Source: an uncultured virus (IMG/VR IMGVR_UViG_3300043442_000948) (lineage: Duplodnaviria > Heunggongvirae > Uroviricota > Caudoviricetes). From it: a stretch of 59,250 nucleotides of DNA. Each line of letters opens with the position of its first letter. The stretch's first letter is position 1. The notes under the pieces are model-generated. The model saw nothing but the letters and a program-made list of their open reading frames with translations, ran no database searches and was not told the DNA's origin. The translations under genes and the position numbers were made by a program. The stretch lies in IMG/VR virus record IMGVR_UViG_3300043442_000948. One strand, given 5' to 3'. Positions 3,969-48,029 of the stretch are shown here, one piece after another.

Positions 3969-4001
3969 ACGACCCAACTCCTACTGAGTTGACGGCCATT
4001 T

Positions 4002-4148: not shown

Positions 4149-4221
4149 GGGCGGTTAGCTCAGTTGGTAGAGCGCTGGTTTTACACACCAATGGTCACTG
4201 GTTCGAGTCCAGTACCGCCCA
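4149..4221 (+). tRNA. trnV: tRNA-Val(TAC)
   Basis: Cloverleaf: GGGCGGT/ACCGCCC acceptor, GCTC/GAGC D-stem, TGGT/ACCA anticodon stem with loop TTTACAC, ACTGG-TTCGAGT-CCAGT T-arm; no encoded CCA. Confidence 0.93.
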
Positions 4222-4774
4222 CTTCGTCTGCAACATGCTTCCAGTTTACGTAGGTAACGATAGCATGAATTCCACCGCGTGTGCCGCCGAACTGTACTTG
4301 AAGTTCTTTAATCGGAACCCCAGTCTTATGCAGCTTACGCATCTGTCGAATTTGGTCTTCGGTATATCTAGCTCTTGGGTTGCTAGTTCCTTGCTTGGGG
4401 TAGCAGCCCACTTTCTTGTTGCGTCCCTTGCTAAACGCGTCCCTGTTGTTATCTCCTATAGTGCCTAGGAATAGATGGTTAGGGTTGATGCAAGCCGGGT
4501 TATCACAGTGATGACAAACACATAGCCCCGCTGGGTCTTTTCTATATTCGATGGCATAAGCTACCCGGTGCAGCAAAAACCTTTTCTTTTTTACACCACT
4601 TTCAGTAGCCACGGCTGTATATGTACTGGCATAGCCTTTGGTATTTGTGTAGCTAGTCCACAACCAGCAGCCGGTCGTATAGTCAATATTAATATGTCTA
4701 GTTAAAATATCTTGGAATTTCTTTAAAGGTAACTCTAACCCATTTAAGGTGAACGTCGCGGGGGAATCGTTCAT
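4181..4774 (-). CDS. HNH homing-type endonuclease with C-terminal HTH-like domain
   Basis: CWLW, LHRVAY, VCHHCDNPACINPNHLFLGT..DN; start taken at ATG 4774 (4834 alternative); last codons overlap tRNA-Val antisense. Confidence 0.88.
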   Translation of the reverse strand: MNDSPATFTLNGLELPLKKFQDILTRHINIDYTTGCWLWTSYTNTKGYASTYTAVATESGVKKKRFLLHRVAYAIEYRKDPAGLCVCHHCDNPACINPNHLFLGTIGDNNRDAFSKGRNKKVGCYPKQGTSNPRARYTEDQIRQMRKLHKTGVPIKELQVQFGGTRGGIHAIVTYVNWKHVADEVGGTGLEPVTIGV

Positions 4775-14451: not shown

Positions 14452-17400
14452 ATGGCTAACTTTGAAAACACGATTGGTATAACAGGCCCTGTATCCCCGA
14501 TCGACGAGCGTGATACTTACCCAACCCATTTTGCTCGTTTAGGTAAGGGTGGATTTTATCGAGTAGCTACATTGGCTGACCGTAACCTAATCTCTGACGA
14601 CCGCCGGGAGCAGGGGTTAACGGTGCTGGTTACAGATGACTTGAATCCAGGCTTTAACCGGGCTTACACCTTAGATGGTGGTATCACTAATGACGACTGG
14701 GTAGAGTGGGTTGTTACTCCCAATTATTTAAACGATTGGAAACAAAACGGTACATTTCCCAACAACCCTAATATCATCTGCGACACCATTACAGCATCCG
14801 GTGATGGCACCTTTTATAACGTATTAGTTTATAACTCCGTTCGGCTGGGTAAGGTAGACAACCGCCTTCAAGTTGTACCGAGCGGGGTTCAACTTTTTAC
14901 TAATAACATCGCTCGGCTGACCGCTACGGAAGACGGTAAGCTGGTCACCTACTCTACCTACGTCCCAACCGAAGCTAAATCGTTGGTTACCAAAGACTTC
15001 GTAGAGCAACTGATTGGCTCTGGTGGTGGCGGCGGGGGTTCGGATATTCCTAACACTCCGATTAACCTAACCCCAACCAACGGTACGAATAACCTAGGTA
15101 CAGGGGACGCGTCCATCACCTTTACGGCTTCTGTCTACTTCAGTCCGATTGCCTCGGCAATGACCGCTAGCCAATGGCGATTCAGCACAACGGCAGACTT
15201 TACCGTGCTGCTCCATACTACGGGCGACCGGGCTGGCACCTCCACCAGTTACACGCTGAACACTCCTTTGACCGTCCTAGGTACTGGGAAGACAGTCTAC
15301 TGGCAGGTACGGTACAAAGACTCGACCAATGCTTACTCTAACTGGAGTAGCCCCACCACCTTTACAACGACGACGACTGACCCAGCTCCCAACCAGCCGA
15401 CGAACATCTCTCCGGTTAACAACGCTACAGACGTCGGCGACCGGGGTAACCCAGTTACACTAACAGGCTCGACCTACTCTAGTGCTGTTAACTCTCCGAT
15501 GACCGCTGCTCAGTGGCAGTTAACCACCACCACAGATGCTGGCTACGCTACGCCTGTTATCTCTACTGGAGACATCGGTGGTACTGCTGTTAGCTACACG
15601 ATTCCTAACCCCAACGCAGTGCTTGGCGTTAACACCACCTACCGCTGGCGTATTCGCTACAAAGACAGCGCGGGTCAGTACTCCGCTTGGTCTAGCTCCA
15701 CCACCTTTACCACAGCGTCATCCTTTACCCGTCTTCCACCCTTCACTCCGATTAATGAACTACCAGTTAACGGCGCAACAAACCAAGGGGCTAACGCAAC
15801 GGCTATCAGTTTAAAAGCAACTGCTTACAACAGCCCAGAGAGCTCCCCAATGGCAGCTGGGCAGTGGCAGATTACTTCTAGTGCTGATACCAACTTCAAC
15901 AACGTCATTGTAGACACTGGGGACATTCTAGGAACTAGCATCGAGCGGGTAATTAATAACCCTTCATCTATCCTGCAACCCAATACCGTCTATCGCTGGC
16001 GGGTACGGTACAAAGACTCTAACGGGCTGTATAGCGGCTGGAGTAGCGCTACAACCTTCACCACCGCTGGTAGCTTCGCATTGCTAGTAGCGCCCCAAAC
16101 TCCTTCTAACGTCTCCCCAGCTAACCTAGCCACCAACCTAGGTTATAACCAGGCTGCTATCGTGCTGCAGGGTTCTCCCTACCAACACACCCGCAACATT
16201 GAAATGGCAGCCCGCCAGTTCCAGATTACGTCGTCAGCTGACACTAGCTTCAACGATGTTATCGTTAACACCAACGAAATCTCTGGGAACCAGCTGACCT
16301 ATGTATTAAACGACCCCAGCCTAGTGTTGAGTACCTCTACCACTTATCGCTGGCGGGTTCGTTACAAGAGTCTGGAAGGTGTGTGGTCTAACTGGAGTAC
16401 CTCTACCCGTTTTACCACTGCTAACACGTTTGCTAACGACGTCCCGGTTATTATTACCCAACCCACTAGCATTGAAGTTGCTGTTGGTAGTACCGCTACG
16501 TTCTTTATCTCTGCGACGGGTACGAACTTAACCTATCAGTGGCGGAAGAACAACTCGAACATTACTGGCGCCACAGCCCCACTGTATACTTTCACTGCTC
16601 AAAGCGGCAGCCCTGGTGGGTATACCTGCGTGGTGTCCAACCCAGCAGGTAGTGTTACATCTGACACAGCTCAATTAACCCTCCGGTTAGACGCTCCTAC
16701 TATCATCCAACAACCACAGGACTTAACCGTCCGCTCTGGTACCACAGCTAGCTTTAACGTTGTTGTTACTGGTTCCACACCACTGTCTTATCAATGGCGT
16801 AAAAACGGGGTTAACATCTCTGGTGCTACCAACGCTAGCTACAACATTCCCTTTGCTTCAGACAACGACGCCGGAGTCTACTCCGTTGTGGTTAGCAACT
16901 CGGTAGGTTCTGTTACTAGCAGTGGCGCTACCTTAACTATCGCGGCTGTTGCTCCAACGATTACCAACCCACCCCAGAACCAAACAGTTAACCAAGGCTC
17001 CCCAGCTACGTTCTCTGTGACAGCCGTCGGGACGTCTCCTATGACTTACCAATGGCGGAAGGATGGGGTTAACATCTCTGGAGCTACCAACAACAGCTAT
17101 GTCATTAGCTCCGCTACCACCACTAATGTAGGGGCTTACTCAGTAGTAGTGACTAACTCGGCTGGTAGCGCGATCAGCTCTAGTGCGACCCTTACAGTTA
17201 ATACCCCTCCCACGATTGTGCAGCAACCCAGTAATACTGTTGTTACTCAAGGGTCTACTGCTACGTTCTCTGTTACAGCAACAGGTACCACACCTTTGTC
17301 CTACCAGTGGAAGAAATCAGTCAACGGGGTCTATACCAATATCAGTGGGGCTACCCAATCAACCTACAGCATTTCCAGTGCTGATAAAGCCGCCGACGAA

Positions 17401-19299
17401 ACAAGCTATCAAGTAGCCATCACCAACACGGTAGGGACTGTCACCAGTAACAACGTTACGTTAACTGTAAATCTAAACCCACCTGTTATCGTTGACCAAC
17501 CCCAGAACCTTACTGTCAATGAAGGTAACAACGCTACGTTTACTGTTTCTGTTAGTGGTGTCGGGCCATTCACTTATCAGTGGCGTAAAGGAACCTCTAA
17601 CATCAGTGGTGCTACTGCAAGCTCTTTGACACTAAGTAACACAACCAGTGCTGACCAGGCTAGTTACTCTGTTATCGTGAGTGGCCCTGGAGGTTCCGTA
17701 ACTAGTTCTTCTGCGAGTCTGACTGTTATCTCCAGACCAGTTATTAACACTCAACCTACCGACACAGCCCTACCCTTAAACGCTAGCGGTTCACTGTTTG
17801 TTGGTGCGACTGGGGCTAACCTAACTTATCAATGGCGGAAGGCCGGTGTTGCTATTGTTGGGGCTACATCACCCTTGTATTCCTTTGTGATGGGTAACGA
17901 CACTGCTGGCTCTTATACCTGTACCGTAACTAATTCAGCCGGCTCGGTAACTTCAAGTGCTGCTAACGTAACCTTACAAGCTACTGCCCCGGTCATTACC
18001 CAACAGCCCCAAGGCGTCACGATTGACGATGGGAATGTGGTTTATCTAACGGTTACTGCCGACAGCCTCTTGCCGTTGTCCTATCAATGGCGGCGTAACG
18101 GGTCTAACATTAGTGGTGCCACTACTAGCACCTACCAGTTTGTAGCTGCAGAGGCTAACGCTGGTACTTATTCAGTTGTTATCAGTAACTCAGCTGGCTC
18201 TACCACCAGTGCTAATGCCGTAGTTACAACCCGCCGCCGTCTGCCGGTTATCTTAGCTCCAACGGCTAACTTATCTGTTGTTGCGGGTAACAGTATTACT
18301 CTCCGCTTAGAAAATAACATTGGTACTTCGTTGAGTTATGCCGACCGTTGGTCACTGATTGATGGTACCGGTTCATTTACCTATCAGTGGGCTAAGGACG
18401 GTATTAACATTAGCGGTGCTACAAACACCACTTATACAATTACCAACGCGGATGCTGACGATGCTGGGGTTTACTCCGTTACCGTTACCAATGCGCGTGG
18501 GGATGTCAGCTCTTCTCGACAGTTGAACGTAACCGTGCCTTTAGTTATCACTCAACAACCCGCAGCTACACAGATTTGTTATCCCTCAACAAGTGAAAGC
18601 TATCCCATAGAGGTTATTTATCAAGCTAACGCTCAACAGCCCGTAACTTGGTATTCTGCTACTTACGGAAGTTCTTCGTTTTCTGTATACTCTGCGCCTA
18701 CTGGTAGCACTTACCAAACAGCCTTAGGTAATAACCTCTACAAAGCGACGTTGGTTATTCCAGCTACCACAACTAATACAGCGACCAACTTTAAAGCTCG
18801 TATTGGCGGTACCTCCTTTATAGAAAGCAACGTCTCGAAGTTATTACGGGTTAAGTGGACAACTGGGTATACAACCTGGAATTCTATCAACGAACTTAAC
18901 TATGGAGGAGTTACTTCTGCTGGTAACTTAATTTACTACGTTGGTTTCTTTGTTCCTAATACTTACTCTGAGGTTGGGACATTAAATGTAACCTTGACTG
19001 CCAGCATCGTTAGCGGTAACTTAGGAACTTATGTTCGACCTGCGACTCCGACAGAACTTAACTCTTTTTCCACCGCAGCGCCAAAATATAATGTGAATAA
19101 CGGTGGCACTGTTACCTTTACCGTCCCAGCTAATAACACTTACGCCTACGCCTTCTTTGTAGTGGACGGCACGACAGTCGCCGGGCAGTACCGGATGAAA
19201 GTTGAAATTACGACTAATTACGGTGACATAGGTTTAGGGCGGTTGTCTGATTCCGGCGGCAATACCTTTATTTATGGGCCTCTGGACTATTCCATGTAA
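14452..19299 (+). CDS. large virion fibre/adhesin with 4 FN3-like and 8-9 Ig-like domains
   Basis: 4x PxxPxNxxP...YxWxVRYK...SxWS...FTT; 8x PxI..(Q)P...YQW.K....I.GAT...Y.V.V.N plus one degenerate copy. Confidence 0.88.
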   Translation: MANFENTIGITGPVSPIDERDTYPTHFARLGKGGFYRVATLADRNLISDDRREQGLTVLVTDDLNPGFNRAYTLDGGITNDDWVEWVVTPNYLNDWKQNGTFPNNPNIICDTITASGDGTFYNVLVYNSVRLGKVDNRLQVVPSGVQLFTNNIARLTATEDGKLVTYSTYVPTEAKSLVTKDFVEQLIGSGGGGGGSDIPNTPINLTPTNGTNNLGTGDASITFTASVYFSPIASAMTASQWRFSTTADFTVLLHTTGDRAGTSTSYTLNTPLTVLGTGKTVYWQVRYKDSTNAYSNWSSPTTFTTTTTDPAPNQPTNISPVNNATDVGDRGNPVTLTGSTYSSAVNSPMTAAQWQLTTTTDAGYATPVISTGDIGGTAVSYTIPNPNAVLGVNTTYRWRIRYKDSAGQYSAWSSSTTFTTASSFTRLPPFTPINELPVNGATNQGANATAISLKATAYNSPESSPMAAGQWQITSSADTNFNNVIVDTGDILGTSIERVINNPSSILQPNTVYRWRVRYKDSNGLYSGWSSATTFTTAGSFALLVAPQTPSNVSPANLATNLGYNQAAIVLQGSPYQHTRNIEMAARQFQITSSADTSFNDVIVNTNEISGNQLTYVLNDPSLVLSTSTTYRWRVRYKSLEGVWSNWSTSTRFTTANTFANDVPVIITQPTSIEVAVGSTATFFISATGTNLTYQWRKNNSNITGATAPLYTFTAQSGSPGGYTCVVSNPAGSVTSDTAQLTLRLDAPTIIQQPQDLTVRSGTTASFNVVVTGSTPLSYQWRKNGVNISGATNASYNIPFASDNDAGVYSVVVSNSVGSVTSSGATLTIAAVAPTITNPPQNQTVNQGSPATFSVTAVGTSPMTYQWRKDGVNISGATNNSYVISSATTTNVGAYSVVVTNSAGSAISSSATLTVNTPPTIVQQPSNTVVTQGSTATFSVTATGTTPLSYQWKKSVNGVYTNISGATQSTYSISSADKAADETSYQVAITNTVGTVTSNNVTLTVNLNPPVIVDQPQNLTVNEGNNATFTVSVSGVGPFTYQWRKGTSNISGATASSLTLSNTTSADQASYSVIVSGPGGSVTSSSASLTVISRPVINTQPTDTALPLNASGSLFVGATGANLTYQWRKAGVAIVGATSPLYSFVMGNDTAGSYTCTVTNSAGSVTSSAANVTLQATAPVITQQPQGVTIDDGNVVYLTVTADSLLPLSYQWRRNGSNISGATTSTYQFVAAEANAGTYSVVISNSAGSTTSANAVVTTRRRLPVILAPTANLSVVAGNSITLRLENNIGTSLSYADRWSLIDGTGSFTYQWAKDGINISGATNTTYTITNADADDAGVYSVTVTNARGDVSSSRQLNVTVPLVITQQPAATQICYPSTSESYPIEVIYQANAQQPVTWYSATYGSSSFSVYSAPTGSTYQTALGNNLYKATLVIPATTTNTATNFKARIGGTSFIESNVSKLLRVKWTTGYTTWNSINELNYGGVTSAGNLIYYVGFFVPNTYSEVGTLNVTLTASIVSGNLGTYVRPATPTELNSFSTAAPKYNVNNGGTVTFTVPANNTYAYAFFVVDGTTVAGQYRMKVEITTNYGDIGLGRLSDSGGNTFIYGPLDYSM

Positions 19300-24306: not shown

Positions 24307-25719
24307 TTACATAATAGTGCTAGCACGTTGGGAAAGCGGGCTACGTTCACCTTTAATTAAAGTGATATGCCCAGCCAAAGGCTCGTCCTTCCAACAGTCA
24401 ATCGCGTAGGTCAAACCATTGCTACTAGCATCCAAGTAAGGGTCGTCAATCTGGTCAATATCCCCTAGCAGCACAACTTTTGTATCGTCGCCCGCGCGGC
24501 CAATGATTGTCTTAGCTTCTTCCGGGGTTAAGGACGCCGCTTCATCAATCAAAATGAACTTATTGTTGTACGTCACGCCCCGGATGTAGGCAAGGTGCTC
24601 TTGCTGGATAAAACCCCGCTCGATTAAGTATTCGTGGGGTTTGATTGGAACACTGTTCCGGGAGTTCCCAAAGAAAGCACCAGAGTCTTGCTTACCACCC
24701 AAGATAGCGTCTAAACAAGAAAAGAACGGCTTCATCCAAGGCTCAGACTTTTCTTCTATGTCCCCAGGTAGAAAGCCTTCTTTGACACTGTGGTGAACAA
24801 ACTTCCGGCTGATCAGAATCTGGTCGTACAGCTTAAGATCTAAGACCGCGTGTAACGCTCCTAGAAGCGCGATAAACGTCTTACCAGTACCAAGAGACCC
24901 ATTGATAGTTACAAGTGGGATACCGGGGTCTAGAAGCAGTTCTAAAGCCATTTGCTGCTCCCGGTTGCGGGCCCCTTTAGACCCCATCAAATGCTTCCGG
25001 TCTGGAATCAAACGTAGGTAAGTTTCCCCCCTTTCATTAACCTTGGCAATCGCCAGCGCGGTCTGCTTAGAATCTTCTATTGCCTCCAAACAAACCAGCT
25101 CATTAGGAAATAGTCCCATTTCATCTTCATCTTCGTCGATGGCTAATTCCTTTTCACTGTATAGATAATTGATTAACTCCTTTTCTACTTTGATGTAACG
25201 CGTGCCGGTGTATAAGTCATGCACACTGACCTTATCACTTAGATAGTCTTCCGCCACAAGCCCGTGGACTCCAGCTTTAACCCGCAGGTTAATATCCTTC
25301 GTTACTAGAATCACCGGCGCGGGGCTTTCTAAATCAAACAGCAGCCAGTACTGTAGTAACAAAAGCCGGTTGTCTACCTTTTCATCATATGCGGGCGGCA
25401 TAAATGCTAGGTCAGGTTCCCGCCCTTTACTAACATTCTCGTAAGACAATACTTTAACTAGCCCGCCGCTATCATTAGCAGTAACCCCTTCACCAAGGTC
25501 GCCGGCTAACCTTAACTCTTCCAAGTTCCGAATAGCCGCCCGCGCCGCTCTCCCTACTGCTCCATCAGCTTTCTTCTTATTATCCAACTCTTCTAGAACA
25601 TCCAACGGAATAATCACAGTGTTCTCTTCAAACAACCACAGAGCATTGGGGTCGTGGATTAAAACATTGGTGTCTAAGATAAACGTCTTAGTTAACGTGG
25701 TCGACGCGGGGCTTTCCAT
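24307..25719 (-). CDS. phoH: PIN-PhoH (PhoH2-like) protein
   Basis: ILDTNVLIHDP, VLEELD, DN, TKDINLR (PIN); GSLGTGKT, GFLPG, YIRG, IDEA, GD.DQID, ERS (PhoH). Confidence 0.92.
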   Translation of the reverse strand: MESPASTTLTKTFILDTNVLIHDPNALWLFEENTVIIPLDVLEELDNKKKADGAVGRAARAAIRNLEELRLAGDLGEGVTANDSGGLVKVLSYENVSKGREPDLAFMPPAYDEKVDNRLLLLQYWLLFDLESPAPVILVTKDINLRVKAGVHGLVAEDYLSDKVSVHDLYTGTRYIKVEKELINYLYSEKELAIDEDEDEMGLFPNELVCLEAIEDSKQTALAIAKVNERGETYLRLIPDRKHLMGSKGARNREQQMALELLLDPGIPLVTINGSLGTGKTFIALLGALHAVLDLKLYDQILISRKFVHHSVKEGFLPGDIEEKSEPWMKPFFSCLDAILGGKQDSGAFFGNSRNSVPIKPHEYLIERGFIQQEHLAYIRGVTYNNKFILIDEAASLTPEEAKTIIGRAGDDTKVVLLGDIDQIDDPYLDASSNGLTYAIDCWKDEPLAGHITLIKGERSPLSQRASTIM

Positions 25720-31115: not shown

Positions 31116-31607
31116 CTACAGTAAATTGCCCCACTGTTCTTCTTGGCTTTCGAGCCAATCGTTGTGGGAGTTCAGGACTTCTTCGGAGCTGCGGGGCTCT
31201 ATGTCAAAGTCCATTGGGTACACTTCTTCCGTATCTGCCAAGTGGTCTTCGTAGTCGGCTGCTTCCAGCTCACCACGAATGATATTGGCAATCCGTTCCA
31301 GGTTGGAACGGTACAGGCGGAGACGGTTGTACTCTTTGGTTAGCGACTCCTGTGTGCAAGCGCCGGGGTGGCACTCGGGATTAGGATACTCGCAAGAGTA
31401 CTTGTACTCCGGCCCCCATCCTTTGACAACAGCGTTGATGTTGGCTTCCCGGTTAAGGGAATTAACCAACATTTCTGCTACCGCTGTGGGTAGGCTTACG
31501 GCCAGCTCGTCCGGGCAGGGCACCCAACCACCTTCAGCGGTCAGGTAACCCAGTAAATCGGATGGGAACTCGGGGTCTTGTATTAAAAGCTCACGACGTA
31601 CTAACAT
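31116..31607 (-). CDS. acidic hypothetical protein
   Basis: 163 aa; AAGGAG RBS. Confidence 0.75.
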   Translation of the reverse strand: MLVRRELLIQDPEFPSDLLGYLTAEGGWVPCPDELAVSLPTAVAEMLVNSLNREANINAVVKGWGPEYKYSCEYPNPECHPGACTQESLTKEYNRLRLYRSNLERIANIIRGELEAADYEDHLADTEEVYPMDFDIEPRSSEEVLNSHNDWLESQEEQWGNLL

Positions 31608-31638
31608 GCGTTCTCCTTTATTGTTTATAAGTGGTCAA

Positions 31639-31825
31639 AAGGTGCAGCGGAGGTCGAATCCGCAAGACTCACGAATGACTAGTTCGCTAACAGCTTATCG
31701 TAATCTAGTTTCCACGCCTGCCGACCTGTACGTGGCGCCGGGAATTACCCTCTTACTACGGGAGTCACTCCGTAGCTAGGACAACTAGATTACTCACCGT
31801 CCTTACCAATTGGACGTATGCACCT
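31639..31825 (-). ncRNA. tRNA-like RNA with large multibranch insert replacing the anticodon arm
   Basis: AGGTGCA/TGCACCT acceptor, CGTCC-AATTGGTAA-GGACG D-arm, GCGGA-TTCGACC-TCCGC T-arm; internal 11-bp stem GTAATCTAGTT/AACTAGATTAC. Confidence 0.65.
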
Positions 31826-32230
31826 ACAACACCAGTTTAAAGTCATGGGTGTCATGGACATCATACAACCCAGGAGCCATTGCCGAAGCAAGAGGACTAT
31901 CCTAGGACCGTAAACCACAGTGCTGACTAACACCGTGGGGTTTTGGCGTTTCTCCGGGAAATTTTGCTAACACCAGTACCATCACGTACCAGGCTGATGT
32001 TAACTAGCCAAGCAAAGAGCCTTTATTTCTGCCGCTTACAGGGCACGGGTCTGTACGCTACCGGTCTTTCAGTCACGGGGACGACGATCCCACCTTTATA
32101 GTTTAGAGTCTGCAGGCTGACAGACTTGTTGTGTATTCAAGGGCGTTTTCGGTGACGCGCTGCCGTTCGGCAACTCGGCACGTAAGCTATTATTCCACAA
32201 CTGACCAGCCACGGTTGCCCTGGTCATTTT
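31826..32230 (-). ncRNA. candidate structured non-coding RNA(s)
   Basis: No long ORF; serial hairpins incl. TTGC-TTCG-GCAA tetraloop and pseudoknots; lies downstream of promoter-like motif 32234-32264. Confidence 0.45.
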
Positions 32231-32233
32231 GTC

Positions 32234-32264
32234 CACTCCCTCTTCTATTTTTAGGCACTAAGAC
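32234..32264 (-). promoter_or_regulatory. phage promoter-like motif
   Basis: GTCTTAGTGCCTAAAAATAGAAGAGGGAGTG (29/31 identical to 30210-30240). Confidence 0.7.
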
Positions 32265-32296
32265 ACGTGTCTTACCGTTATAGAAAAGGGGATGGT

Positions 32297-32560
32297 TTAG
32301 GACTGTTTCCAGATGTGTTTGGTCTCGTTTAAACACGCGACTGGGATGTCATCCCAGGCAGTCACAATAGTGCGACCACGGTCGCGGTTACGGAGTCTTA
32401 CCCCGAACTCACTATAGAGCTCTTCTTCAAGGTCAGCGACCTCTGCCTGAGCCTTCAGTTGGGAAAGGGTTCTGGGTTCACGGAAGCTGCAGCCCGGGTG
32501 GGCTTGTTGGCCCCAGCGGGCTTCCATAACTTTGGGGTAGGAACGGTATGTACGTGCCAT
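32297..32560 (-). CDS. hypothetical basic protein
   Basis: 87 aa, GGAG RBS; MARTYR...FREPRT...TAWDDI. Confidence 0.7.
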   Translation of the reverse strand: MARTYRSYPKVMEARWGQQAHPGCSFREPRTLSQLKAQAEVADLEEELYSEFGVRLRNRDRGRTIVTAWDDIPVACLNETKHIWKQS

Positions 32561-35553: not shown

Positions 35554-38500
35554 CTAGTGGCGGTTAGCTTTCAGCCACTCGAAGTATTCTTTGTCAACGT
35601 GGCCTTGGCTGCCGATGAACCAGTTGACAGCGCGGGGGTCGCTGACATCAAAGTACACGTCTTCAATTTTTGTAAAGCGGCTTAGCATGACGTACAGGGC
35701 GGCTTCACGGGTCAAAGCAACAGTTTCACCTTTGATGTCTTCGAATACACCACATACGCCGGGGTTAGTTAACGTTAACCCCTGGCACGAATTGATCGTG
35801 GTGGCGAAGTCAGCGTGCAGCGGCAGCTGGATGAAGATGCCACTCAATGTGCCGTTAGGAAGACGACGACCAACGAACTCATGGGCGCCGATTGCAAGGG
35901 GTTTGCCATCACCGAAGTCCACTTCAACGTGGTTAGTGGCTAGTTTGGTCACGCGCCCACGGCTACCATTAGCAGCGATAAGAGTTTTCTTACTGTTGAT
36001 AATTTGGTAGATGTTCTTGCGTAACTTAACCGGCATCCCAATGGCTAAGGTTAAGTCCACGGGAATAGGACGGAACTCCCGTAGCCACTTGTCATTAGTA
36101 GCGGCTTTATAAACGACCTGACCACCGTAGGTACGTTTAGCTGTGGTCATCTCGGCAGTGCGACGCTCGTTAATATCTTCAACACGTTTGTTGTTGAAGT
36201 AGATATAAGTCACGTCGTCCAAGTTGCTAGGGCGTAACCCTTCTAAACACTGCTTAAAGCGCTCTAAAATGACGCCGGTAACTTCACCTGTTTCACGCAG
36301 GTGGTCAAGGGCTTCTTCAAAGGCACGATCGTCTTTTTGACGGACGCCAGTCTGAAGTTCAATGACCTTAAACTCACCAAACATGTAAGGCAGTGTGCCT
36401 AAATAGCCATCGATGACGGCTTGTTTGTAGAATTTCACTGCGTCTTCGCCGATAACTGGCAGCTGCCCACCATCACCGACCAACAGCACTTGGGCAAGCG
36501 GGTTATAGTACTTGATGATTTCCATCACGATGTAGAGTATCCGTGCGTCTAACATCGATACTTCATCAATTACAACCCGTAGCCGTCCTGTTTTACAGGT
36601 TAGGTTTTCCTTTACATAGTCGTTGACTTTGGCAAGGGCAATAAGTTTGTTAGCCCACTGCCAATCGTTTTCGTTGCCGCGGTCGTCACTATCAAAGGCG
36701 ATACCTAAAGCGAAGCCACTGTTGACAGTGCCTGACGCTTCTACTGCACCATCTTCCAGGTTACCGGCTAGGTTCATTACGCTGATACCAGTGGTACCAA
36801 ACGCAACAACCTTGTCACCAGCGGCAGCCCAACGGTGGATGCACTCACTGGTGATATAGGTCTTCCCTGTGCCAGCTTTACCAGTTAAGAAGACATGGTG
36901 CCCTTCGGCAACCAAGTCCATGAACTTCTGTTGGCAAGTGGTGTAGTTACCAGGGGTGAACTCAACCTTAACTGGCAGCGCTGGGGCTTTAACGGACATT
37001 ACAGTCATTGCTGTTGCTTCCTCGAGAGTAGGGACAATAGTCACTTCTTTTTTCTTATTGTCCACTACTGGTGTGGCTTCAACATCAATGGTCTGCACCA
37101 TGGTTACTGTACCATCTTCAGCTATTTCTTCCTCTTCCGTAGCGATAACGCCGTTCGGTGTTGGGTTAATAATAGGTTCCAACACAGAGGAAGCCCCGGA
37201 GGGCTCAGCAGATTCGTGGGAAATAGAATCTGCTGTGGTGGTGATTTGCTGAACCGGTTCAGGACTAGCGGCTTCACCACCATCGCCGCTGGGTTTGGGT
37301 TCGGGCTTAGGAGTAGGGCTACCACCAGTGGGTTCTTCGGGCTCATTCTTATCGTCAGAGCACGAACCGTTCGTGGGGTTAGTATAGCCAAACTTAGACA
37401 GCAGTTCAGCTACAGCCTCTTCTCCGAATTGAGCTCGAAGATTAGCAACGACGGCTTCTGCTTCAGCTAATCGTTTGACATAGGCTTGTTCTTCTGCTTT
37501 ACGTTTAGCTATAGCTTCCGCTTCGGCCTTGAAGTTAGCTAGCAGTTCATCACTAGTAGCAACGTGTGCTAAAGGTGACACCACAGGGCTAACAGGTTGC
37601 TGAACAACTACAACCGGCTCAGGGTCAGCTATAGGTTCAGTAGTAACCACGGCAGCAGGAGTAGTACCGTTGATGGCAGCATTGAGTTCTTCAGTGCTAA
37701 CTTCGTCGTCGAAGTAGGCAGCGTCTAACTCATCGTAAATCCGGTCATCTTGGTCTTCATCAGCAGGCTCGGGAGCTACTTCAGCTGGTTGTTCAGCAGT
37801 AGCGATAGCATTGTTGATTTCATTCCAACTAACTTCTTTACCATCATCTTCGTACTCACCACACCACCCATCGTCGTAGTCATCAGGGCAATCGGGCATT
37901 TCACGGTCATAGAAGTCTACACCTAAGTCGTCTTGGACTTCGTCAGGTACTTCTGTTTTAGGGCCATTGTTGACGTTTGTTAGCTCTTGGTTAAGCCAAG
38001 TAATCTCCTGAACGGGGGTTAGTTCAGGTTTAGACTCGACAACCGTGGCAGTGATGTCAACAATGGGGTCTAGTTCCATGTTGTTATCCTCCTGTTTACC
38101 GGCGCGTAGCTCCAGCTTGTAACGGAAGTAATCCATAGCTGGGCGCACGCCATCTTTATCGGCAAAGATATAACCAGCGCCGGGCATATGTGTTAGTACA
38201 TCGCCCAGGACTTCCGGCTGGAAGATTTTGCGCATTACCCACAGTACATGGGAGTGGTCAAAGGCGCCTTCAGGTATTTCCAACCCGTTGATGCTATTAC
38301 CAAGGGCGAACCAGTGGTATAGCTGACGGCTGATGAATTGGTGAGCACCAACTTTGCACTCGTCCCATTCGTTTTCACCGTTCAAGTAGCCTTTGAAGTA
38401 ACCAACCCACTTACCACGACCCATCTCGAATTGGGCTAGAGCGGTGTACATAATGAACTCGCTCAAACCAGCACCGGCCCAAGCGTGCTCACCGTACAGA

Positions 38501-41500
38501 TTGCCTTTCTCCCAACACTTCACGTCAGCGACTACGTTAAAGCAGTTGGCCATTGCAGCAGCAAGAGTATGGTTACAACCAATATCTTCTACTGCTTCGG
38601 CGAACGCAGGTAGCGTTGACTCAGTGATGTAATTGGCAACCTTCCGTTTTTCAATGGTTTTGGGTTTAGCAATCTTCTCCATAAAGGACTTCCACATGTG
38701 CCACGCAGCGGTACTGTAGGCACCAAGAATGGTTTCGTACAGTTCGGCTACTGCGGATACGATTAGGAAGGCCCGGTCGCTAACAGCCCATTGGAAGCGT
38801 GCAGGGACTTCAATACCAGCTTTGGTTAGTGCAGTGACGATATCTACGATGGCTTCAGCCATTTGATAGATACCATAGGATACACCAACCATAGTGGCAA
38901 AGACTTCCCGGGCACGGGCGTTGATAGCAGAGTAGCTGGTTACAGTACGCAGGACTACAGGCTGCTCTTTGCCTTTTTCGTCTTTCGTCGTGACGATGAC
39001 ACCGTTTTCCTCTTTATAAAGTTCGATGTCCTTGACGCTGTGCTGTACAGCGCCACCTACACAGATGTAAGAACCTAGCTGCTCCGCAATTTTGTAGCGG
39101 CTGCGTCCGTTCTTAGGCATCATGTAGTCGCCCCAGTAACACCCTTTGCGGAGCATTACGTCAAAGGCAGACTCACCTTCGTTCCGACCAACAGCGTTGG
39201 CACGGAATTCTAGGGCGGACTCGGCGGTGGTTAGAGCTGCGAACAGACGGGCTTTGGTGGCAGCGTCTTTCCAAGGCAGAATGGCTCCGTAGGTACCGTC
39301 ACCATCATCATCCCCAGCCGTCATCATGTTGTGCGCGATAGCACTGGTGATGCGGACATCAGGGTAGATGCTGTCAACGCGGACGATGGGCTCTTTGGTT
39401 TTACGGTCTACCAAAGGTTGTCCGTCGCGGTACTCGATGTACTCTAAATCGCTGGGAGCGTAGTAGAAGTTCTCGAGTTCCTTAACTGTGTTGGGCAGCA
39501 AGGTGGTTAGCACCAGAGGGCCGTCGGGCATCGGAGCCCGGGTTTCGTGGTTGAAGATGGGTGTCTTGTAGGCCTTGTGACCTTTGGACACGGCTTGAGC
39601 GAACGTAGGACAATCGTTCAAGCGGTGTTTAATCACGTCTTCGGTGTACTCACCTGTTTCGTGGTCGAAAGCAGGGTGTTCATACCCACGAACGTGGCGG
39701 CTCATCAAATCGAACTGGCGGCCAGTGTCGGAAATCAGCAACATCCAGGTAGGAATGTTGGGCAGCGACAGGGCCTTACCACCAACCAACGTGTCGCCGT
39801 TGATGTTCTTGGCGGTATTACCAGATTCGACTAAAGCCCGCAGCTTCCCACGGATGCGGTTGACATCAACACCATTAGGCATCTGACCAGCTAACAGCAC
39901 GATTAGGTACTGATAGAAGAGCATACCCGACATGGTGTCTAAGGATTCTTCACCAGACTTCAGTGAGTTCAGGTTGAACAACAACGGGGCGTAGATGTCA
40001 ATGTGACCTACTTTGGTTGTTGTATCTTCGCCGTACTCAGCGTCAAAGTCAGCGTCGAAGTAGACGTCTTCGTCATCCGTTTTAGGCTTAACCAAGTGGT
40101 TATCCTTCAGGGCACGGGCGCTGGTGGTTTCGACACGAAGAATGACGTTGCGAAGTGCAAAGCAAATCCGCTCGAAGAGTAGATTGTCCTCGGGGTCATT
40201 CAAATCGATACCCGCCAACAACGCGTGGACTTCAGCCAATCCTTGTTGGTTAGGAACAGCTTTAGACACGAAGTCACCACGGACTTTCTCTGTTTTCCAA
40301 GAGCAGAGGTTGATGACTTTGTTACCAGCGGTGCCCATGCTGCCGTCGTAGCCAGCGCAGAGCAGTTTTGCACGATAAGGCTCTTCCAAAGCACGGACGG
40401 CTTGACCCATCATGATTTCACGGATGGTGTCGCAGCCGAGCAAGCGGTAGTTAGAACGCATAGAGGAACCTAACTGAGTAGATTCACCAGCGGCCTCTTT
40501 AACCGTGCTGGACTCGAACAGCACCACATCATAGATGGGGCAGTCGCAATCTTCACGACCAACCATGGCCCAGCTACGTTGTTTGTAGCGTAGGACTTTA
40601 GTGTGGTTGGGGTTCATATAGAACCAGAAGATGTTGGCCCGCTCTTCAGCTTCCGTACCGTAGACCGTGGGGTCATTGAAGTTTACATCGGAGTAAACAA
40701 TAATGTCGCGGTTTAGCTCGGCGCCTTCTTCGTCCTGACGGAGGCGGGTACAGTTGGTCACGTTGTACATCTTGCCAATTTTGGTGGCAGCAGCGTACTC
40801 TTTGAGTAGTTCCGTACCGTAGTCACCGGCGCCAAGTTGTTGCCAGTCAACGGTAATCTGACGACCAAAGAACGCACAGAAGCGTTGCTGCAACTCATCA
40901 TATAGCCCGTCAGCGATAGCAACAGGGCACTCAACTAAGTAGTCAAGGTGACGACGCCCTTGTACTTCAAAGTTGATGTCCATAGCGCGGTTGACCATCC
41001 ATAGGAACTCTGGATGGACGCAGTCAGGGTTCAAGACAAACGTATGACCCATGATTGGAATTAACCAGTGTAGGGTGTCCGCTTTGATAACGTCTTGAGT
41101 GTAGACCACATCTACCAAACGCTCGGTGACGCCGGGGTTATCAGCGTTGAAGATGAATTCCTTCTTGACGCTGGCAAGCATCCCTTTGGCTACAGAAGAG
41201 CGAATCTTCGGCCAGTCTTCCTTCCAGGTGATAGCCCACTCAACGACCAGCTGAGTGCCTTCTTTCCCACCAACCATAGAGCAGACTTCGTAGGTACGAA
41301 CCCACTCTAGGTAACCCTTGATGTCGCGGGTCTGTTTAATAGCCCGGAGGTAGGGGCGGTTGCCTTCCAACATCACGCTGGTGTCGACGTGGGCTAACAC
41401 ATCACCGCAGCCTACTTCTTGCAACGCTTTGGGTCGGTAGTAGGTGTAGTTAACACCGTACTTCGACTCTTGAGTCACATCATAGCCACAGCCCATAAGG

Positions 41501-44500
41501 ATGGTGCCAGTGTCAATATGTAAACCAGCACCACGTTTGTACATCGAAGACTTGTAGGACATCTTCTTGGTTACAAACCCAGTGGGGCGGTGCTTCTTGC
41601 CACTGACGTGCCATGCTTCACCAGCAGGGCCGATGATGGTCATACCTAAGATGACACGCTGAGCAGTACCGATTAGGTCGCGTTCTTGCGTGTATGACCG
41701 GTAACCGCCGCGGATGCCGTAGAATCCAGGCGGCACAGTGCGTGCGGCTTGGTTATCATACTTAATCCCACGACCGTTTTCTAGCGCGGCAGCAAGTAAG
41801 GGACGACCTTCAACATCGATGACGCAACCGGAAGGTACAGACGTTGCTGCACGGAGCAGGATACGTTTTGAACCCTTTTCAACTTTCGTATTAAGGTTGA
41901 CAAAGAAGCCGGCTAAGTCACCAGAGTAACCAAGCTTAGCAACCCGCTTCTTCAGTCGGGCGTACCACTTCTTGGCATGCTTGGCTAGCAAACCACAGTC
42001 AACGTGGACTAGGTCACCGCGGAGGCCCGTTCCTTTGTTGAAGCTAAAGCCCATGCTATAGCATTCAGCAATACGGAAGATAACGGTCTCCAAGATACCG
42101 GAGTCTTTGACTTCCCCGCGCAAGCGGTAGCCACCGTAGTTGGTGGTCAGCTTCTCTGAACCTGCACCAGCGAAGTCCTTGACTTTTACCTTACCGTTGA
42201 CCACGGTCATTAGTTCAGGCTTGTGGATAGTCTGAACTTCCACTTCCTTACCTTCGACCTTCTTGGTTTCGGTGGTGAGCATCGTACCCACAATGTTGAA
42301 GCCACAGGCCTCAGCGTGGATAGTAGGGCCAGTCATGTTGACGGTACCGTCGCTCGTCACCGGGAAGTATTTGTCATACTTCGTGTGGAAGGCCTTCAGG
42401 TTGGAACTTATAGTGCGGCTATCCATACAGCTCATCAGCTTGCCGCTAAGCAAGGCTATGTAGCCATAATAGAAGAAGCGCATAAACGCTCCGTAGGAAG
42501 ATGTTGCCACGACGTCGTGAACAACTTTGACCATACCTTTCTTGGTCTTTTTGTTTTCCCACAGGACATCAATCACACCTTTGAACATGCGGGTGCGGTC
42601 GTTATCCACAACACCAATGTCATCAATGATGTAGACCAAACTACCATCTTCAATGTTGATGGCATTATCCACAAACTTGATAATTTTATCGGCGTTGGTG
42701 GTGTCAGTGGCATCATCCGGGTCAATTAGGTAACTCCGAATGATATTGACCAAGGCCTCAAAGTGCCCAACTTGCCAGTTGTAACCGCTCATCATGGGCA
42801 GGTTACCGATGGGGTCAACCCCGATACAGGCAGCCAAGTAAGCGTGGCAAGCGTAAGCAGCGGGACGTAGACCATAGTTAAGGTTCATAGTCCCTTCTTT
42901 GGTCACGGTATTGCTGCTAACCCAGCCAGCAAACTTCTCCATGCTAAAGTCTTGCCAGTTAACAGCGTTGAGTTGTTTAGAATCAACAGTTGTTAGGGCA
43001 GCGTAGTATGCCTTCAGCTCATCTGCCATGGAAGTATCGACGGCAGGAGGGGGAGTCAAAGCGTCAGCTAAGCTGGTCATATCTGGCTTGACTGAGGCAT
43101 TGTAGACGCTACGTTGGTACTCAGGGCCACCGTTGACCAAGTTGTCATAGGCTTTGCGAAGGGCCTGCATAAACAAACCGTCTTTACCAGTCCAACGGTC
43201 TGGAGCTTTAACAAGCTGCCCGTTCTTAATCAGGTTGTGGGTACAACCAGCTAAGAACTTAGCACCGCCGTGGTCGGAGATAGCTTGCAGTAACGGGCGG
43301 TGTTGCACCAACTTAGCTTCAAGTATCTCTACCATAAGTCCTAAGACATTGTCATCGGCTAGAGACTCCAAGCTTACCTTTGTCGCTTGGTAAGCATCTT
43401 CGGAGCGTTTGTAGTCAACGCCGAAGAACTTAATAGGCAACGCAGCAAGGTTGCTTAGCTGGTGGCCCAGCCCTGTTTCATAGGAGCTGATGTTAATCCC
43501 CACAGGAACCTCCGGTTTAGTAGGAGCAACTTCTTCTTTCTTGGTTACTTCTACTTGAGCGACAGGCGGCTTGCCAAGATTGACTTCAGTCAGGATGGAT
43601 GTCGGGCCATTCTTGAATCCTTTATCCAAACCTTCAACCAACCAGCTACGACCATATTCGCACAGGTCAAGACGTGGGTCGCCTTTGACTTTCGTATCAA
43701 CGAAGTCACTCTGCGGGAACATAGCTTTGGTTGTCTTGGTCTGACGCAAGAATCCATCACCGTACAGCGTGTCAACAATCGCTTCGTAGCAATGACTGTT
43801 GAAGTGGGTGATAGCACTGGGGTCAAACATGGCGCCTGGGTCATCCACAGACAGGAAGGTCATATGGTTGCAGTAGAAACGTGATTGAATCACTTTCTTG
43901 TGATTCTTAACGTCACCCACTACCTGGCCATTGACGACATCAACGTTGAGTTGACGCTGTTTAAAGCGCGGGTCAAACTCAGCATCTGCATCAGTCGCCT
44001 TACCAAAGCCATGTACACCATTGACTTCGGCTACGACCATAAACCAATAGCGTTTATTCGCTTCTGGCATACAGTTGAGCAGCCCGTCGGATTTGATGAC
44101 GTTGCTTCCCAACTGTTTAGGCTCAGTGCCATTTAGCAACAACTCTTTCAGCTTCCGGCGGCGGTCGGTTGATAGTACCGTGGGGGTAACGTCAACGTGA
44201 GCAGTCATCGCCAGTTTATCTTCAATTTTGTTTAGCTCATTGAAGACTAGCTGGATTTGAGCGTTACGGATGTTGGAGTTACGGTACCAGCCCTTGGTGC
44301 CAAAGAAGAAGTTGGCACAAGTCGGAGCTCCCGTCCGGTAGGCACGGGCTAGGAATACCATAACAGGTTCGTCATCACCCATTAGGTTGCCTAGGCCGGT
44401 GTGATTTAGCTTATGCTTTTCGTTTACCACATTGGGTAGACCTAACTCCTCGAAGTAGGTTTCCGTGTCGAACTGCCCACGAACCGGTAAGTTCAGGTTA

Positions 44501-47500
44501 CATGGGATAATTTCGTTGGCGTCGTTACGCATTAGGGGCACAAACCCCACAGAGTAACCCAAGACGTGGGCGTCGTTGAAAGCAAGCGTGTTGCTCATAC
44601 GTGCCACAATCTTGGTGCCAAACAAGCAATCAATGATTTCATTGACCATGTTTACCTCCTTAAGGTTAGGCTCTCCCTCTACTTTTTTCACGCCCGACTG
44701 CTGATTAACAGCGTCAGACGTTGGGGAAACGGGTCGACCTCCCGCCGTAGCACCAGCGTCAGCTGGAACCCCATTCATGTTCATTTGTAAATCACCAGCG
44801 CCGTATTTAGCTTTGGCAGAGGCCATGATAGCATCCGCTTGCGCTTGTATGGTAATTGGGACTACAGGAACCAGTGGTTCACCATCCAGGTCACCAAAGA
44901 ACCAGTCGTCCATAAACAAGTTCTCTTGGTCTAAGCCACGGTAGCGGTGTTTTGCTGGTTTATTCTCTAACAGCTGAGGACGTCCGAACTGCCAGGTATT
45001 CATTACCACTTGGAATAAGCGGTCACCGGTCGTTAAATCTATAGACCAATAACCAACTTCTTCGGTGTGATAAAGCGGCCCGTCCTCACCTGGGACACAT
45101 ATATCGAAGTAAATCGTACCTCGTACTGTGCCGCTAGCACGTCGGTTTTGGATAATAAGGCTAATACTGTCACCAGTCCAGTACTTAACCTCTTTCTCTT
45201 CCTTGGCATATATCATTTCACTGATAGTTTGGAAGAGCCAACCTTCTTGGATAGGCACCGCTTTTTCATACCCCATCTTTTCGCTGGGGCGAGCCACTTC
45301 CAACCGCTGTACGTTGTGTTGGTAGGCCAGGTAGGTGTTCCCAGCAACGTCCTCTACGTGGTAGTCATCTGTGCCAAGAGTACGCACGTAGTAGGTGAAC
45401 CCATTAACGTCCATTCCAACACGTTTGTTTTCTGGGTCATGTATAAGGTCACTATTCGGGCGACCAAAATGACCTATCAACAAGTCAATCGCACGCCGGT
45501 TAATCTGACGCCCTGGAAGTACATACTTAGGTGCCTCAATCACACCTGTTTGAGGGTTGTAAGATACTTTCTCTAACTCATGGACGTAGCATTTGCCTTG
45601 CTTGGCCCGTGTAGTATAGGTACGGTAAGTCAGACTCTTGTTAGCGCCTAAGTCGTAGACGTCGTAAGGCCCGAAACTATCACCGAAGCTATCCTGATAG
45701 CCAGCGCTATTAGACGGGCAGTACATTAAATAATGTCCGTCAGTGCGCTTTTCACCACTAAGCGGGTTTTCTGCGAGACCATCGGCGTTTACACCAACTA
45801 ACCCATACTCTCCACTGAGTATAGGTAACCCATGTTTGTAGCCGCGGGCTAAGCAAGTGCGGTGCCACCAGTCAGCAAGTTCGTGTAACTTACTGTTTAG
45901 TAATTCGACGCTTCCATAGACCCGGTCTACGAATAACCCTGATACTTCTGTGTAGTCAGCGTCAGCATACATCAACCGCAGTTTAGCGCGAGCTTGATAC
46001 CCCTTACCATCAATAGACCAAGGTTCACCAACGGTCCATAGGAACAGACTTGCTCCGTAGAACTTCTTGTCCCCATCTATTTCTATGAGGTCAAGGTCAT
46101 ACCCTTTGGGGTCAAACTCTTCTGTACGTTGGCAGCTCTTGTAATAAATACTGTTGCCTTGGTCATAAAGAGCGTACTCTTCTGTTTCCCAAACTTTGCT
46201 TTTTCCGTTAGTATCAACAGAAAGAAGCTTAGATACTTTATCAGCAGGAACACCTGCATTGATAAGTACCTTGCTAAGTTTGGGTGAACGGGAGCCTAGC
46301 TCTTTAGCACGCTCTTTGGTGAGTTGGCGGTCTTTCCATTCTTTATGGGTTAACCGAATGCCATACTGAGCCTTGATTAAAGCCAACATGGAGGCAGTTT
46401 CGTCAGGCAATGGCAATACGTCGACGATAGGAACCAATTGCATCTGAAGATCACCAACAGCGCCGTATTCACAACGGACGGTGTTGACGACTGTTTCAGC
46501 AACCATATCCTGAACGTCAACGAGCTGCCATGCAAACAACTCATCCATCACTTCGGCTGCCCGTTGATAAGCCTCTACCGCCAACTGGTGTTGGTGGTAA
46601 TCTTCTTGCCACGGTTCCAGCGGGTCGTCCCACTCATCAAACTGGTCTTCTTCACCGACCGGCCCTTCTTCAAATAAGGGCTCATACGTCCAGCAGGGCT
46701 TCCAGTCCTTCTGCTGATCACGTTTGACACCACCATAAAGATGGTTCAGGGCCGATTGACCATCTTTACGACGGTTATACGACCCGTCCGCCATCATTCG
46801 GCGGTAGTGAACTGATAAGGGGAGTTCATCTTCAGTCCGCCGAGTGCGACGGAACTTGCCAGTCTTAGCCATGGGGGTTTCGACTCCATTAGCTAACTGA
46901 AATCGTGAGTTGCCCTGGCGGAGGGCGTCGGACTTCATAGTACGGGTAACAGGCCGCTGGGTAGTCACAGTTGTGACCGTGGTCCGTTTGACCGGTGGGG
47001 TCACTACTTTATAGGTAGTGACTTTGGTTACTTGTCCGCCCCGGTGGGCATAAATACGAAGCCACTCGAAGTAGCCGAGACGGTCTGCTTTCCAGACCGT
47101 TTTGATTTTGCGCTGCTTACGTGCAGCAGCGCGCTGCTTGGTCGTCAAGGGACGACTGAGTTTGCTACCAGAATACTTTTGCCGGCGCTTGCGATTGGCG
47201 CGGGCAATCATTTGATTGATTTTGCGGGAATTCATTTGTTTAGCACGAACGGTTCGTGCGATATAGGTTTTGGCAATAAAGCCCTTACCGCCCCGACGAG
47301 GGGTGCCATTGCGGCGGGCAAGAAGGTGGGTGACTGAAACTAAACTGAAGCGGGCACGGTTCAATACACGGCGGGCTTGTTTATGGTTGTCGCGGGCAGT
47401 AGCGATGACCGTTGTGACATCATCAACTGTAGGGGTAGTAATAGTAGGGATAGTGGCCCGGACTTTCTTGACTAAAGACTCTGCCCACTCACGTCGGAGG

Positions 47501-47913: not shown

Positions 47914-48029
47914 GATGTTTTTCCTACTTGACTTGGTTGAGTTTGGGTTAACGACGTCCATGCTTTTAACCGGAGCTTGACTGAACCGGGCGCACCTAAG
48001 CAAAAACCGACGCGGCTGTTAATTAGTGA

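Follow-up and report, generated by a model that had tools for sequence, protein, structure and literature searches.

The 59,250-nucleotide (nt) stretch of DNA analysed here (hereafter the window) is the IMG/VR record IMGVR_UViG_3300043442_000948 of an uncultured virus of the Caudoviricetes. On its minus strand it holds a 187-nt transfer RNA (tRNA)-like element, placed between an open reading frame (ORF) for an arginine-rich protein of 87 amino acids (aa) on its 5' side and an ORF for an acidic 163-aa protein on its 3' side (Table 1). The element keeps the top half of a tRNA, i.e. the acceptor stem, the D arm and the T arm, while the single nucleotide 26 and the anticodon arm are replaced by a region which is 134-154 nt long among the window and its two homologues. 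On the sequence evidence the element is a real and conserved tRNA-like RNA that had not been classified before, and its core is modular. A first, sequence-only reading of the window had proposed the tRNA-like frame with its U8-A9, together with an 11-base-pair (bp) stem and three hairpins within it; all of these were confirmed, and every coordinate proved correct.

Table 1. Features of the tRNA-like RNA and of its surroundings, with positions in the window unless another sequence is named.
Feature	Position	Strand	Sequence, structure and remarks
tRNA-like RNA	31639..31825	minus	187 nt including the discriminator U73 (31639); based on sequence, fold and homologues L002 and L004; no Rfam family
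Acceptor stem, 5' strand	31819..31825	minus	AGGUGCA; 7 Watson-Crick pairs with the 3' strand
Acceptor stem, 3' strand	31640..31646	minus	UGCACCU
U8-A9	31818-31817	minus	
D arm	31798..31816	minus	CGUCC-AAUUGGUAA-GGACG; stem 31816-31812/31802-31798, loop 31811-31803
GUGAGU	31792..31797	minus	just 3' of the D arm; invariant in 3/3 homologues; insert types diverge right beyond it
A-type four-way-junction domain	31700..31793	minus	11-bp stem around hairpins 31775-31756, 31750-31740 and 31735-31712
11-bp stem of the domain	31793-31783 / 31710-31700	minus	GUAAUCUAGUU / AACUAGAUUAC
Hairpin 1 of the domain	31775-31770 / 31761-31756	minus	CUACGG/CCGUAG
Hairpin 2 of the domain	31750-31748 / 31742-31740	minus	GGG/CCC
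Hairpin 3 of the domain	31735-31731 / 31716-31712	minus	CCACG/CGUGG
Linker	31691..31699	minus	GAUAAGCUG; common to the window and the B-type insert of L004; L001 has AAUAAGCUG
Hairpin H4	31671..31687	minus	GCGAA-CUAGUCA-UUCGU; 5-bp/7-nt geometry, anticodon-arm-like
T arm	31647..31663	minus	GCGGA-UUCGACC-UCCGC; stem 31663-31659/31651-31647, loop 31658-31652
Upstream hairpin I	31869..31906	minus	CCUAGGA...UUGC-UUCG-GCAA...UCCUGGG; RNAalifold
Upstream hairpin II with conserved linker to the tRNA-like 5' end	31826..31868	minus	hairpin at 31859-31842
Arginine-rich 87-88-aa ORF (ORF88)	32297..32560; L004 2540-2806; L002 1817-2077	minus in window	directly upstream of the RNA in 3/3 phages
Acidic 163-aa ORF	31116..31607	minus	AAAGGAG ribosome-binding site ~25 nt after the RNA

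The D loop AAUUGGUAA includes G18 and G19. The 134 nt that separate the D and T arms in the window consist of G-UGA, the domain closed by the 11-bp stem, a linker, the hairpin H4 and GAGUCUU. The longer linker between the 11-bp stem and H4 reads GAUAAGCUGUUA, and CUAGU is present twice in the region (31788-31784 and 31682-31678). The discriminator U is followed by UUU, and the gene encodes no CCA. The first reading had also pointed out the missing CCA; this is correct but no argument against tRNA-like maturation, as the ordinary tRNA-Val(TAC) of the window is likewise without an encoded CCA.

The minimum free energy of the RNA was -66 kcal/mol (z = -2.14), with 4 of 200 shuffles folding equally well, and the centroid structure retained the acceptor, D, 11-bp, first-hairpin and T helices. 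A scan for long tRNA frames, defined by an acceptor stem of 7 bp, a T stem of 5 bp closing a TTCRANN loop, GG within the D arm and a span of over 100 nt, with G-U pairs allowed, found two frames in the window. One was this RNA, and the other an artefact formed by the true tRNA-Val together with a partial duplicate of its 5' end. The same scan of 100 composition-preserving shuffles gave a mean of 0.08 frames, with at least one frame in seven of the shuffles. Given its conservation with compensatory change in two other phages, the tRNA-like feature is well beyond chance.

One of the two homologues (L001/L002) lies in an IMG/VR phage contig of 216.5 kb and 96% completeness, the other (L004) in an 84.5-kb metagenome contig, and the length of the RNA varies between 187 and 207 nt among the three. 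The sequence-only reading had proposed collecting homologues and looking for covariation, and the homologues do covary in the T stem. This stem reads GCGGA/UCCGC, GGUGG/CCACC and GCAGG/CCUGC across the three homologues, with both sides changing at three of the five pairs and all 15 cells paired. The D arm is invariant, with its five pairs unchanged in all three, and the acceptor stem is paired at 7/7 positions in the window and L004. Over the whole 17-pair frame, 96.1% of the 51 cells are paired, compared to 31-67% when the partners are slid. The UUUU trailer is kept in all three homologues, and the 5' half is identical to that of the window at 34/34 positions in L004 and at 33/34 in L001. No conserved ORF was found across the RNA on either strand.

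The 125-nt core of the insert can be compared between the window and L001, where 119 of the 125 positions are identical and none of the six substitutions breaks a predicted helix. Two of the substitutions fall outside the helices. Two others keep the pairing by wobble, with A-U becoming G-U in hairpin 1 and U-A becoming U-G in the 11-bp stem, and the remaining two together change an A-U pair to G-C in H4 (GCGGA/UCCGU in L001). The core is thus 95% identical between the two phages, compared to 51% for the downstream 400 nt and 54% for a neighbouring helix-turn-helix (HTH) protein. Purifying selection acts on the structure of the tRNA frame. A decaying tRNA pseudogene, split by an inserted element and carried neutrally, is disfavoured and very improbable: the acceptor mismatches of L001 would suit it, and the A-type insert, which is the insert of the window, has at its two ends a perfect 11-bp inverted repeat and direct repeats of GUGAGU that resemble insertion scars, but full compensation in the T stem, the absence of disruptive changes among the six in the insert and the far higher conservation of the RNA than of its flanks all speak against neutral decay. 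Also the position of the RNA and a leader upstream of it are kept in phages that have diverged to ~50% nucleotide identity nearby.

The standard detectors did not recognise the RNA. With Rfam 15 at the gathering score, only the tRNA-Val was matched in the whole window and nothing at the RNA locus, and the same search of 140 kb of the 96%-complete relative G001 gave no match at the RNA locus either. Even at E ≤ 10, no family was matched in the region 31540-31930, including tRNA, transfer-messenger RNA (tmRNA), group I intron, Y-RNA-like and ribozyme families, which answers the Infernal comparison suggested in the first reading. Among GenBank phages, blastn found no match to the RNA locus. ARAGORN with default settings called only the tRNA-Val(TAC) at 4149-4222 in the window and not the tRNA-like RNA. 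Compared to a canonical tRNA, the 7-bp acceptor stem, the D arm with G18 and G19 and the T arm with a UUCRA loop are all present, whereas there is no anticodon stem joined to the D stem by one nucleotide, and the tRNA model RF00005 was unmatched at both thresholds.

Several known classes were rejected. A group I intron had already been dismissed in the sequence-only reading, and rightly so: the Rfam family Intron_gpI had no match at E ≤ 10 in 31540-31930, and the insert is 125-145 nt long, while the smallest known group I introns are ~200 nt. Such introns also have a U-G pair at the 5' splice site and a G as their last nucleotide; by eye, with the splice sites undefined here, the sole complements of the conserved GAGU pair its U with A and not with G. 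The alanine identity of tmRNA, reported as missing in the first reading, is indeed lacking, as the 3-70 pair is G3-C70 and not G3-U70 in all three homologues, and neither the tmRNA mode of ARAGORN, applied to the three homologues, nor Rfam recognised a tag reading frame with pseudoknots. For a YrlA or other Y-RNA-like RNA, no Rfam match was found, and the TROVE domain (PF05731) was not found in G001; the control search for this domain matched in 2 of 14 control genomes. Interpreting GUGAGU...CUAG as a GU-AG-type intron leaves no anticodon arm, and a short tag-like frame after the common GUAGUAA was judged to be a 7-mer coincidence.

An intron-bearing tRNA, either of the Lak-phage or of the archaeal/eukaryal type, was also rejected. 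The intron mode of ARAGORN, the use of which had been recommended at the outset, called a different anticodon in each homologue: in the window Thr(AGU) with a 110-nt intron, at lowered stringency only, in L001 Pyl(CUA) with a 91-nt intron, and in L004 Phe(GAA) with a 122-nt intron. In addition, all single deletions were enumerated that leave 0-2 nt, a paired 5-bp stem, a 7-nt loop with U33 and a variable loop of 3-8 nt before the T stem. In this enumeration H4 was the sole possible anticodon arm, with AGU in the window and L001 and AGC in L004, and the H4 solutions had a pyrimidine at position 37, variable loops of 7-8 nt and the deletion at position ~26. A solution with the intron in the anticodon loop was not found in the homologues. 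No single excision yields a canonical anticodon arm with a conserved anticodon. Two ideas of the sequence-only reading find no support here. Excision between the two CUAGU copies, which would give a CUA loop, does not agree with L004, where the CUAGU pair is lacking, nor with the conflicting ARAGORN anticodons and the lack of an in-loop deletion. A decoy for anticodon nucleases was the other, and no anticodon loop is conserved across the homologues.

It is rather improbable that the RNA decodes as a tRNA with an additional domain, whether without splicing or following the removal of a new kind of intron at the junction of the D and anticodon stems. H4 would then be the anticodon arm, reading AGU (Thr) in the window and L001 and AGC (Ala) in L004. 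Its 5-bp/7-nt geometry with U33 in the window and L001, including one compensatory change, and the low-stringency Thr(AGU) call in the window agree with such a function, conserved "enigmatic" introns are described from Lak megaphage tRNAs (PMC6784885), and an independent history of the insert would suit a mobile intron. This interpretation, however, would have to accommodate an anticodon that differs between insert types, the pyrimidine at 37, the variable loops, an unusual A34, and a deletion outside the anticodon loop. The three ARAGORN answers for three homologues, a tRNA covariance model unmatched even at E ≤ 10, the missing group I intron match, the failure to find RtcB in the near-complete relative and a contig from an RNA library that retains the insert also contradict it.

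The central part of the RNA and its surroundings differ in their affinities. The sigma factor of the window is 80% identical to that of L004 and 68% to that of L001, and the corresponding figures are 75 and 64% for ORF88, 81 and 51% for the downstream 400 nt, and 85 and 66% for the 3' part of the RNA. In the RNA core the order is reversed, with 52% identity to L004 and 95% to L001, and the lower figure is about that of unrelated sequences under this scoring. Since the flanking markers favour L004 while the core favours L001, the core has been swapped between lineages of these phages independently of the genes on either side. The break points lie at the edges of the tRNA frame, right after the invariant GUGAGU and right before CUU and the T stem. 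Also when public contigs were aligned to the window, a joint was seen at 31792, i.e. at the end of GUGAGU.

At least two very different versions of the core exist. The core of L004 is mostly other sequence in a similar layout, with the hairpin GUUGGG-UAGCU-CCCAAC at the position of H4; both types have a long-range stem around three hairpins and then one hairpin before the T arm. They also have in common hairpin 1 (CUACGG...CYGUAG, then U-W-AG-GGGU) and the 9-mer GAUAAGCUG, and are not entirely unrelated. The public contigs include an L001-like copy in a subsurface run and a further form in a drinking-water run. The latter is identical to the window over the 5' half (31792-31824) and matches it with 5 differences in the T-arm/acceptor region (31628-31666), and has 141 other letters where the window has the 125-nt core.

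Outside these phages the searches were negative. In IMG/VR, the downstream ORF found no relatives, and the alignments of the HTH protein and of ORF88 as well as the leader pattern found only the L001 contig. The A-type junction pattern gave 0 matches in metagenome contigs, and the 5'-half pattern and the leader pattern gave 0 matches each in genome contigs. In the large phage G002 (sigma factor 47% identical), BLAST gave no homologue of the RNA, only a single 14-nt match inside a primase-like gene; tRNAs are lacking in G002 as well, and the scan for long tRNA frames gave nothing convincing there. A second copy of the RNA was not found in the window, G001 or L004. As there were no further relatives in IMG/VR, metagenome or genome contigs, the RNA family is small, and it is carried by a narrow clade of large freshwater phages, which are probably cyanophages.

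An element of ~80 nt just upstream of the RNA (31906-31826, minus strand), the leader referred to above, is conserved in all three phages and includes two hairpins. The first of them has 14 pairs, and its three one-sided changes are all wobble-compatible on this strand only (RNAalifold). The element is present as a single copy in both the window and G001 and is therefore not a repeated promoter motif. At about 1692-1736 of L002, on the minus strand, a 45-nt hairpin insertion (CUGCAUA...UAUGCAG) is located between the leader and the tRNA-like 5' end, as would be expected of a linker between RNA domains. Between the leader and the 87-aa ORF there is another hairpin, followed by a short run rich in U (31925-31960 of the window, minus strand; about 2860-2905 of L004). 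Its structure is kept and its sequence is not, and it may be a weak terminator; in that case the leader and the tRNA-like RNA may form a read-through or separately initiated unit. A scan of 31400-32400 for sigma-70 promoters gave 0 sites.

The genes surrounding the RNA are orphans, matched by neither Pfam nor PHROG. The 87-aa protein (MARTYRSYP...RLRNRDRGR...NETKHIW) is 64-75% identical among the three phages and has only four members in a collection of 5.8 billion proteins, the fourth (P0125) being encoded on a 4.7-kb contig. It has no Pfam or PHROG match of its own and no recognisable fold, and its Atlas model is of low confidence (predicted local distance difference test, pLDDT, 0.39) and gives no hint of a function. 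This arginine-rich protein is a candidate RNA-binding partner. On the 3' side of the RNA, all three phages have an acidic ORF with a strong ribosome-binding site; it is conserved in L004, and the 163-aa ORF of the window is weakly similar to a 270-aa ORF of L001.

A single 908-nt contig 100% identical to the window was found in a metatranscriptomic library, which comes from another sample and study than the likely source of the DNA. It spans 31659-32300 and extends past 32300, with the insert intact and joined to the leader and to at least part of the 87-aa ORF. The contig shows presence only, as strand, ends and processing are beyond what contigs can tell and DNA carry-over is possible. It ends at 31659, and the run has nothing over 31300-31658; being a single study with contigs only, it was not used for the 3' end or for termination. 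A further run, X8, left 31606-31843 uncovered, from which nothing follows.

These observations also bear on whether the element is no more than a cis-acting "t-element", in which the tRNA fold would only direct cleavage by ribonuclease P (RNase P) and ribonuclease Z (RNase Z) and/or stop or stabilise the transcript of the 87-aa ORF and uncouple the downstream ORF, the excised RNA having no function of its own. The position between two same-strand ORFs in all three phages, the strong ribosome-binding site ~25 nt after the acceptor stem, the conserved UUUU trailer and the RNA-library contig joining the upstream ORF, the leader and the RNA are all consistent with this, and tRNA-like t-elements reportedly form the ends of messenger RNAs (mRNAs) in plant mitochondria (PMC1920247). 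Nevertheless, it is unlikely, since a processing signal needs only the acceptor and T arms, and this would leave unexplained both a core of 134-154 nt at 95% identity beside neighbours at ~54% and the invariant D arm, the GUGAGU and the structured leader.

The window is part of a large phage encoding a RecA/UvsX-like recombinase, an integrase, thymidylate synthase, tail-fibre and baseplate proteins and a sigma-70 family factor. The nearest cellular relatives of the sigma factor are 35-37% identical and mostly cyanobacterial (Leptolyngbya, Thermosynechococcus-like), with Streptomyces close behind, and because of this mostly cyanobacterial affinity the host is probably a cyanobacterium. Public runs in which all or some of the stretch is present are labelled as freshwater, drinking-water and subsurface metagenomes. 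The tRNA-Val adjoins a tyrosine integrase gene (2826-3977), and GGGCGGTTAGCTCAGTTGGT at 4067-4086, ~80 nt upstream of the tRNA-Val, partially copies the 5' end of this tRNA. Together these look like an attachment site or an integration remnant in a phage lineage of over 200 kb. In the 216-kb relative, a permuted tmRNA called by ARAGORN (L016, 7266-7719) is probably a false positive, because it overlaps the tRNA-Met and tRNA-Trp genes.

Three further genes of the window were recorded. An ORF of 4149 aa (35554-48003, minus strand) has as its only recognisable part a C-terminal AAA_30/PIF1-like helicase (residues ~3690-3900), and its C-terminal 599 aa found no relatives in IMG/VR. At 24307-25719 on the minus strand, an N-terminal PIN domain is fused to a PhoH-like ATPase (PhoH2 type), a possible RNA helicase/RNase. 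A 1615-aa protein with many immunoglobulin-like (I-set/Ig_3) repeats (14452-19299, plus strand) adjoins the tail-fibre genes and is probably a virion surface or adhesion protein.

Taken together, the RNA is best interpreted, with some reservation, as a non-decoding, tRNA-like structured RNA which carries a modular domain and is probably matured by RNase P and RNase Z. Substrate features of these enzymes are present in the sequence, namely an acceptor stem stacked on the T arm (12 bp), the lack of CCA and a U-rich 3' trailer, and RNase Z prefers CCA-less precursors with U after the discriminator. The RNA would be transcribed together with the upstream arginine-rich 87-aa ORF and the structured 80-nt leader. 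Directed by the tRNA frame, the host RNase P would then cut at 31825 and RNase Z after U73 (31639), and the CCA-adding enzyme may tail the product to give a stable RNA of ~187 nt; cleavage would at the same time divide the upstream message from the downstream one. Once mature, the RNA would not be able to read codons. It would most likely act as a tRNA mimic, by one of two routes, either with the elbow and the acceptor end engaging a host tRNA-binding factor, or with the tRNA frame as a scaffold by which the exchangeable central module matures and is kept stable.

The second route can be developed further, although only tentatively. The RNA might be a natural tRNA scaffold, in which the RNase P, RNase Z and CCA-adding enzyme of the host mature and stabilise an exchangeable RNA payload, and the different cores would be swapped cassettes. 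The payload, possibly together with the 87-aa protein, might bind or neutralise a host factor, e.g. a tRNA-directed defence or a component of translation.

Several observations weigh against a processed, non-decoding RNA of this kind. In L001 only five of the seven acceptor pairs are formed, with U1-U72 and C6-A67 unpaired, which could mean relaxed constraint on the very feature that the two processing enzymes would use. There are 5 bp in the D stem where the canonical one has 4, and A14 is displaced. The covariation score was equalled by 12 of 500 shuffles, making the statistic modest, and thin with three sequences of which two are near-identical. The invariance of the 5' half exceeds what structure alone requires. 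The RNA-library contig extends upstream across the 87-aa ORF, and neither RNA ends nor a CCA tail nor a discrete species of ~187 nt can be seen from contigs. No gene for a TROVE protein, RtcB or a CCA enzyme was found in the 96%-complete relative G001. When antisense or target sites of either RNA type were sought in the window, G001 and L004, nothing but chance matches of 11-14 nt emerged, and a same-sense match of 19/20 to a tail-fibre gene (E = 0.016) was also judged to be chance. A scaffold or decoy function of the RNA is pure inference and rather doubtful.

Among the known systems, tmRNA has the closest topology. It is processed like a tRNA and is ~360 nt long, and it shares with this RNA the order of acceptor 5' strand, large insert, T arm and acceptor 3' strand. 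Unlike tmRNA, this RNA has a full D stem, G3-C70 and no recognised tag frame, and its length is 187-207 nt. The closest architecture is that of the engineered tRNA scaffolds, reportedly by Ponchon and Dardel, in which the anticodon arm is replaced by a structured RNA and host tRNA enzymes mature and stabilise the inserted RNA. Those are synthetic, whereas this RNA would be natural and evolving, with exchangeable cores. YrlA RNAs consist of a tRNA-like module and a second module, have their ends in the Ro-binding stem, work with Ro60/TROVE proteins and are encoded by some phages. They share with this RNA the non-decoding character and the combination of a tRNA-like elbow with a second functional module, but are circularly permuted relative to it, and TROVE was not found in the 96%-complete relative. 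YrlA-type RNAs are mentioned in PMC7824862.

The closest published case is that of the Lak megaphages, in which a tRNA-Tyr GTA has a 93-nt intron at 37/38 (Devoto et al. 2019, PMC6784885, Table S6). The two have in common tRNA-shaped phage genes with inserts of ~90-130 nt that belong to no known intron class, and an insert that is nearly identical wherever the same insert recurs. The Lak inserts, however, are at the canonical position 37/38, and their exons make a scoreable tRNA with a defined anticodon (PMC6784885), whereas the insert of this RNA replaces or displaces the anticodon arm. The t-elements of plant mitochondria are reported to be tRNA-like folds between genes, thought to direct RNase P and RNase Z and to define mRNA ends (PMC1920247). 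They are small and have no large conserved insert, and this RNA occurs in a phage of bacteria. Surveys of viral structured RNAs report generic "tRNA-like" candidates (PMC10690425). No natural phage RNA of this design was found described in the literature, although an unnamed candidate in the supplements of such surveys could correspond to it.

Much current work on the conflict between phages and their hosts concerns tRNAs and tRNA mimics encoded by phages. To our knowledge, the described cases are ordinary tRNAs, tmRNA or Y-RNA-type RNAs, or tRNAs with unexplained introns. The present RNA retains exactly that part of a tRNA which is recognised by the processing enzymes and by many tRNA-binding proteins, and gives up decoding. 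It further illustrates, by a concrete case, that large environmental phages have unannotated structured RNAs which standard tRNA and Rfam scans miss. Should the RNA prove to be processed and stable, the synthetic tRNA scaffold would have a counterpart in nature, and phages a new route to deliver structured RNAs.

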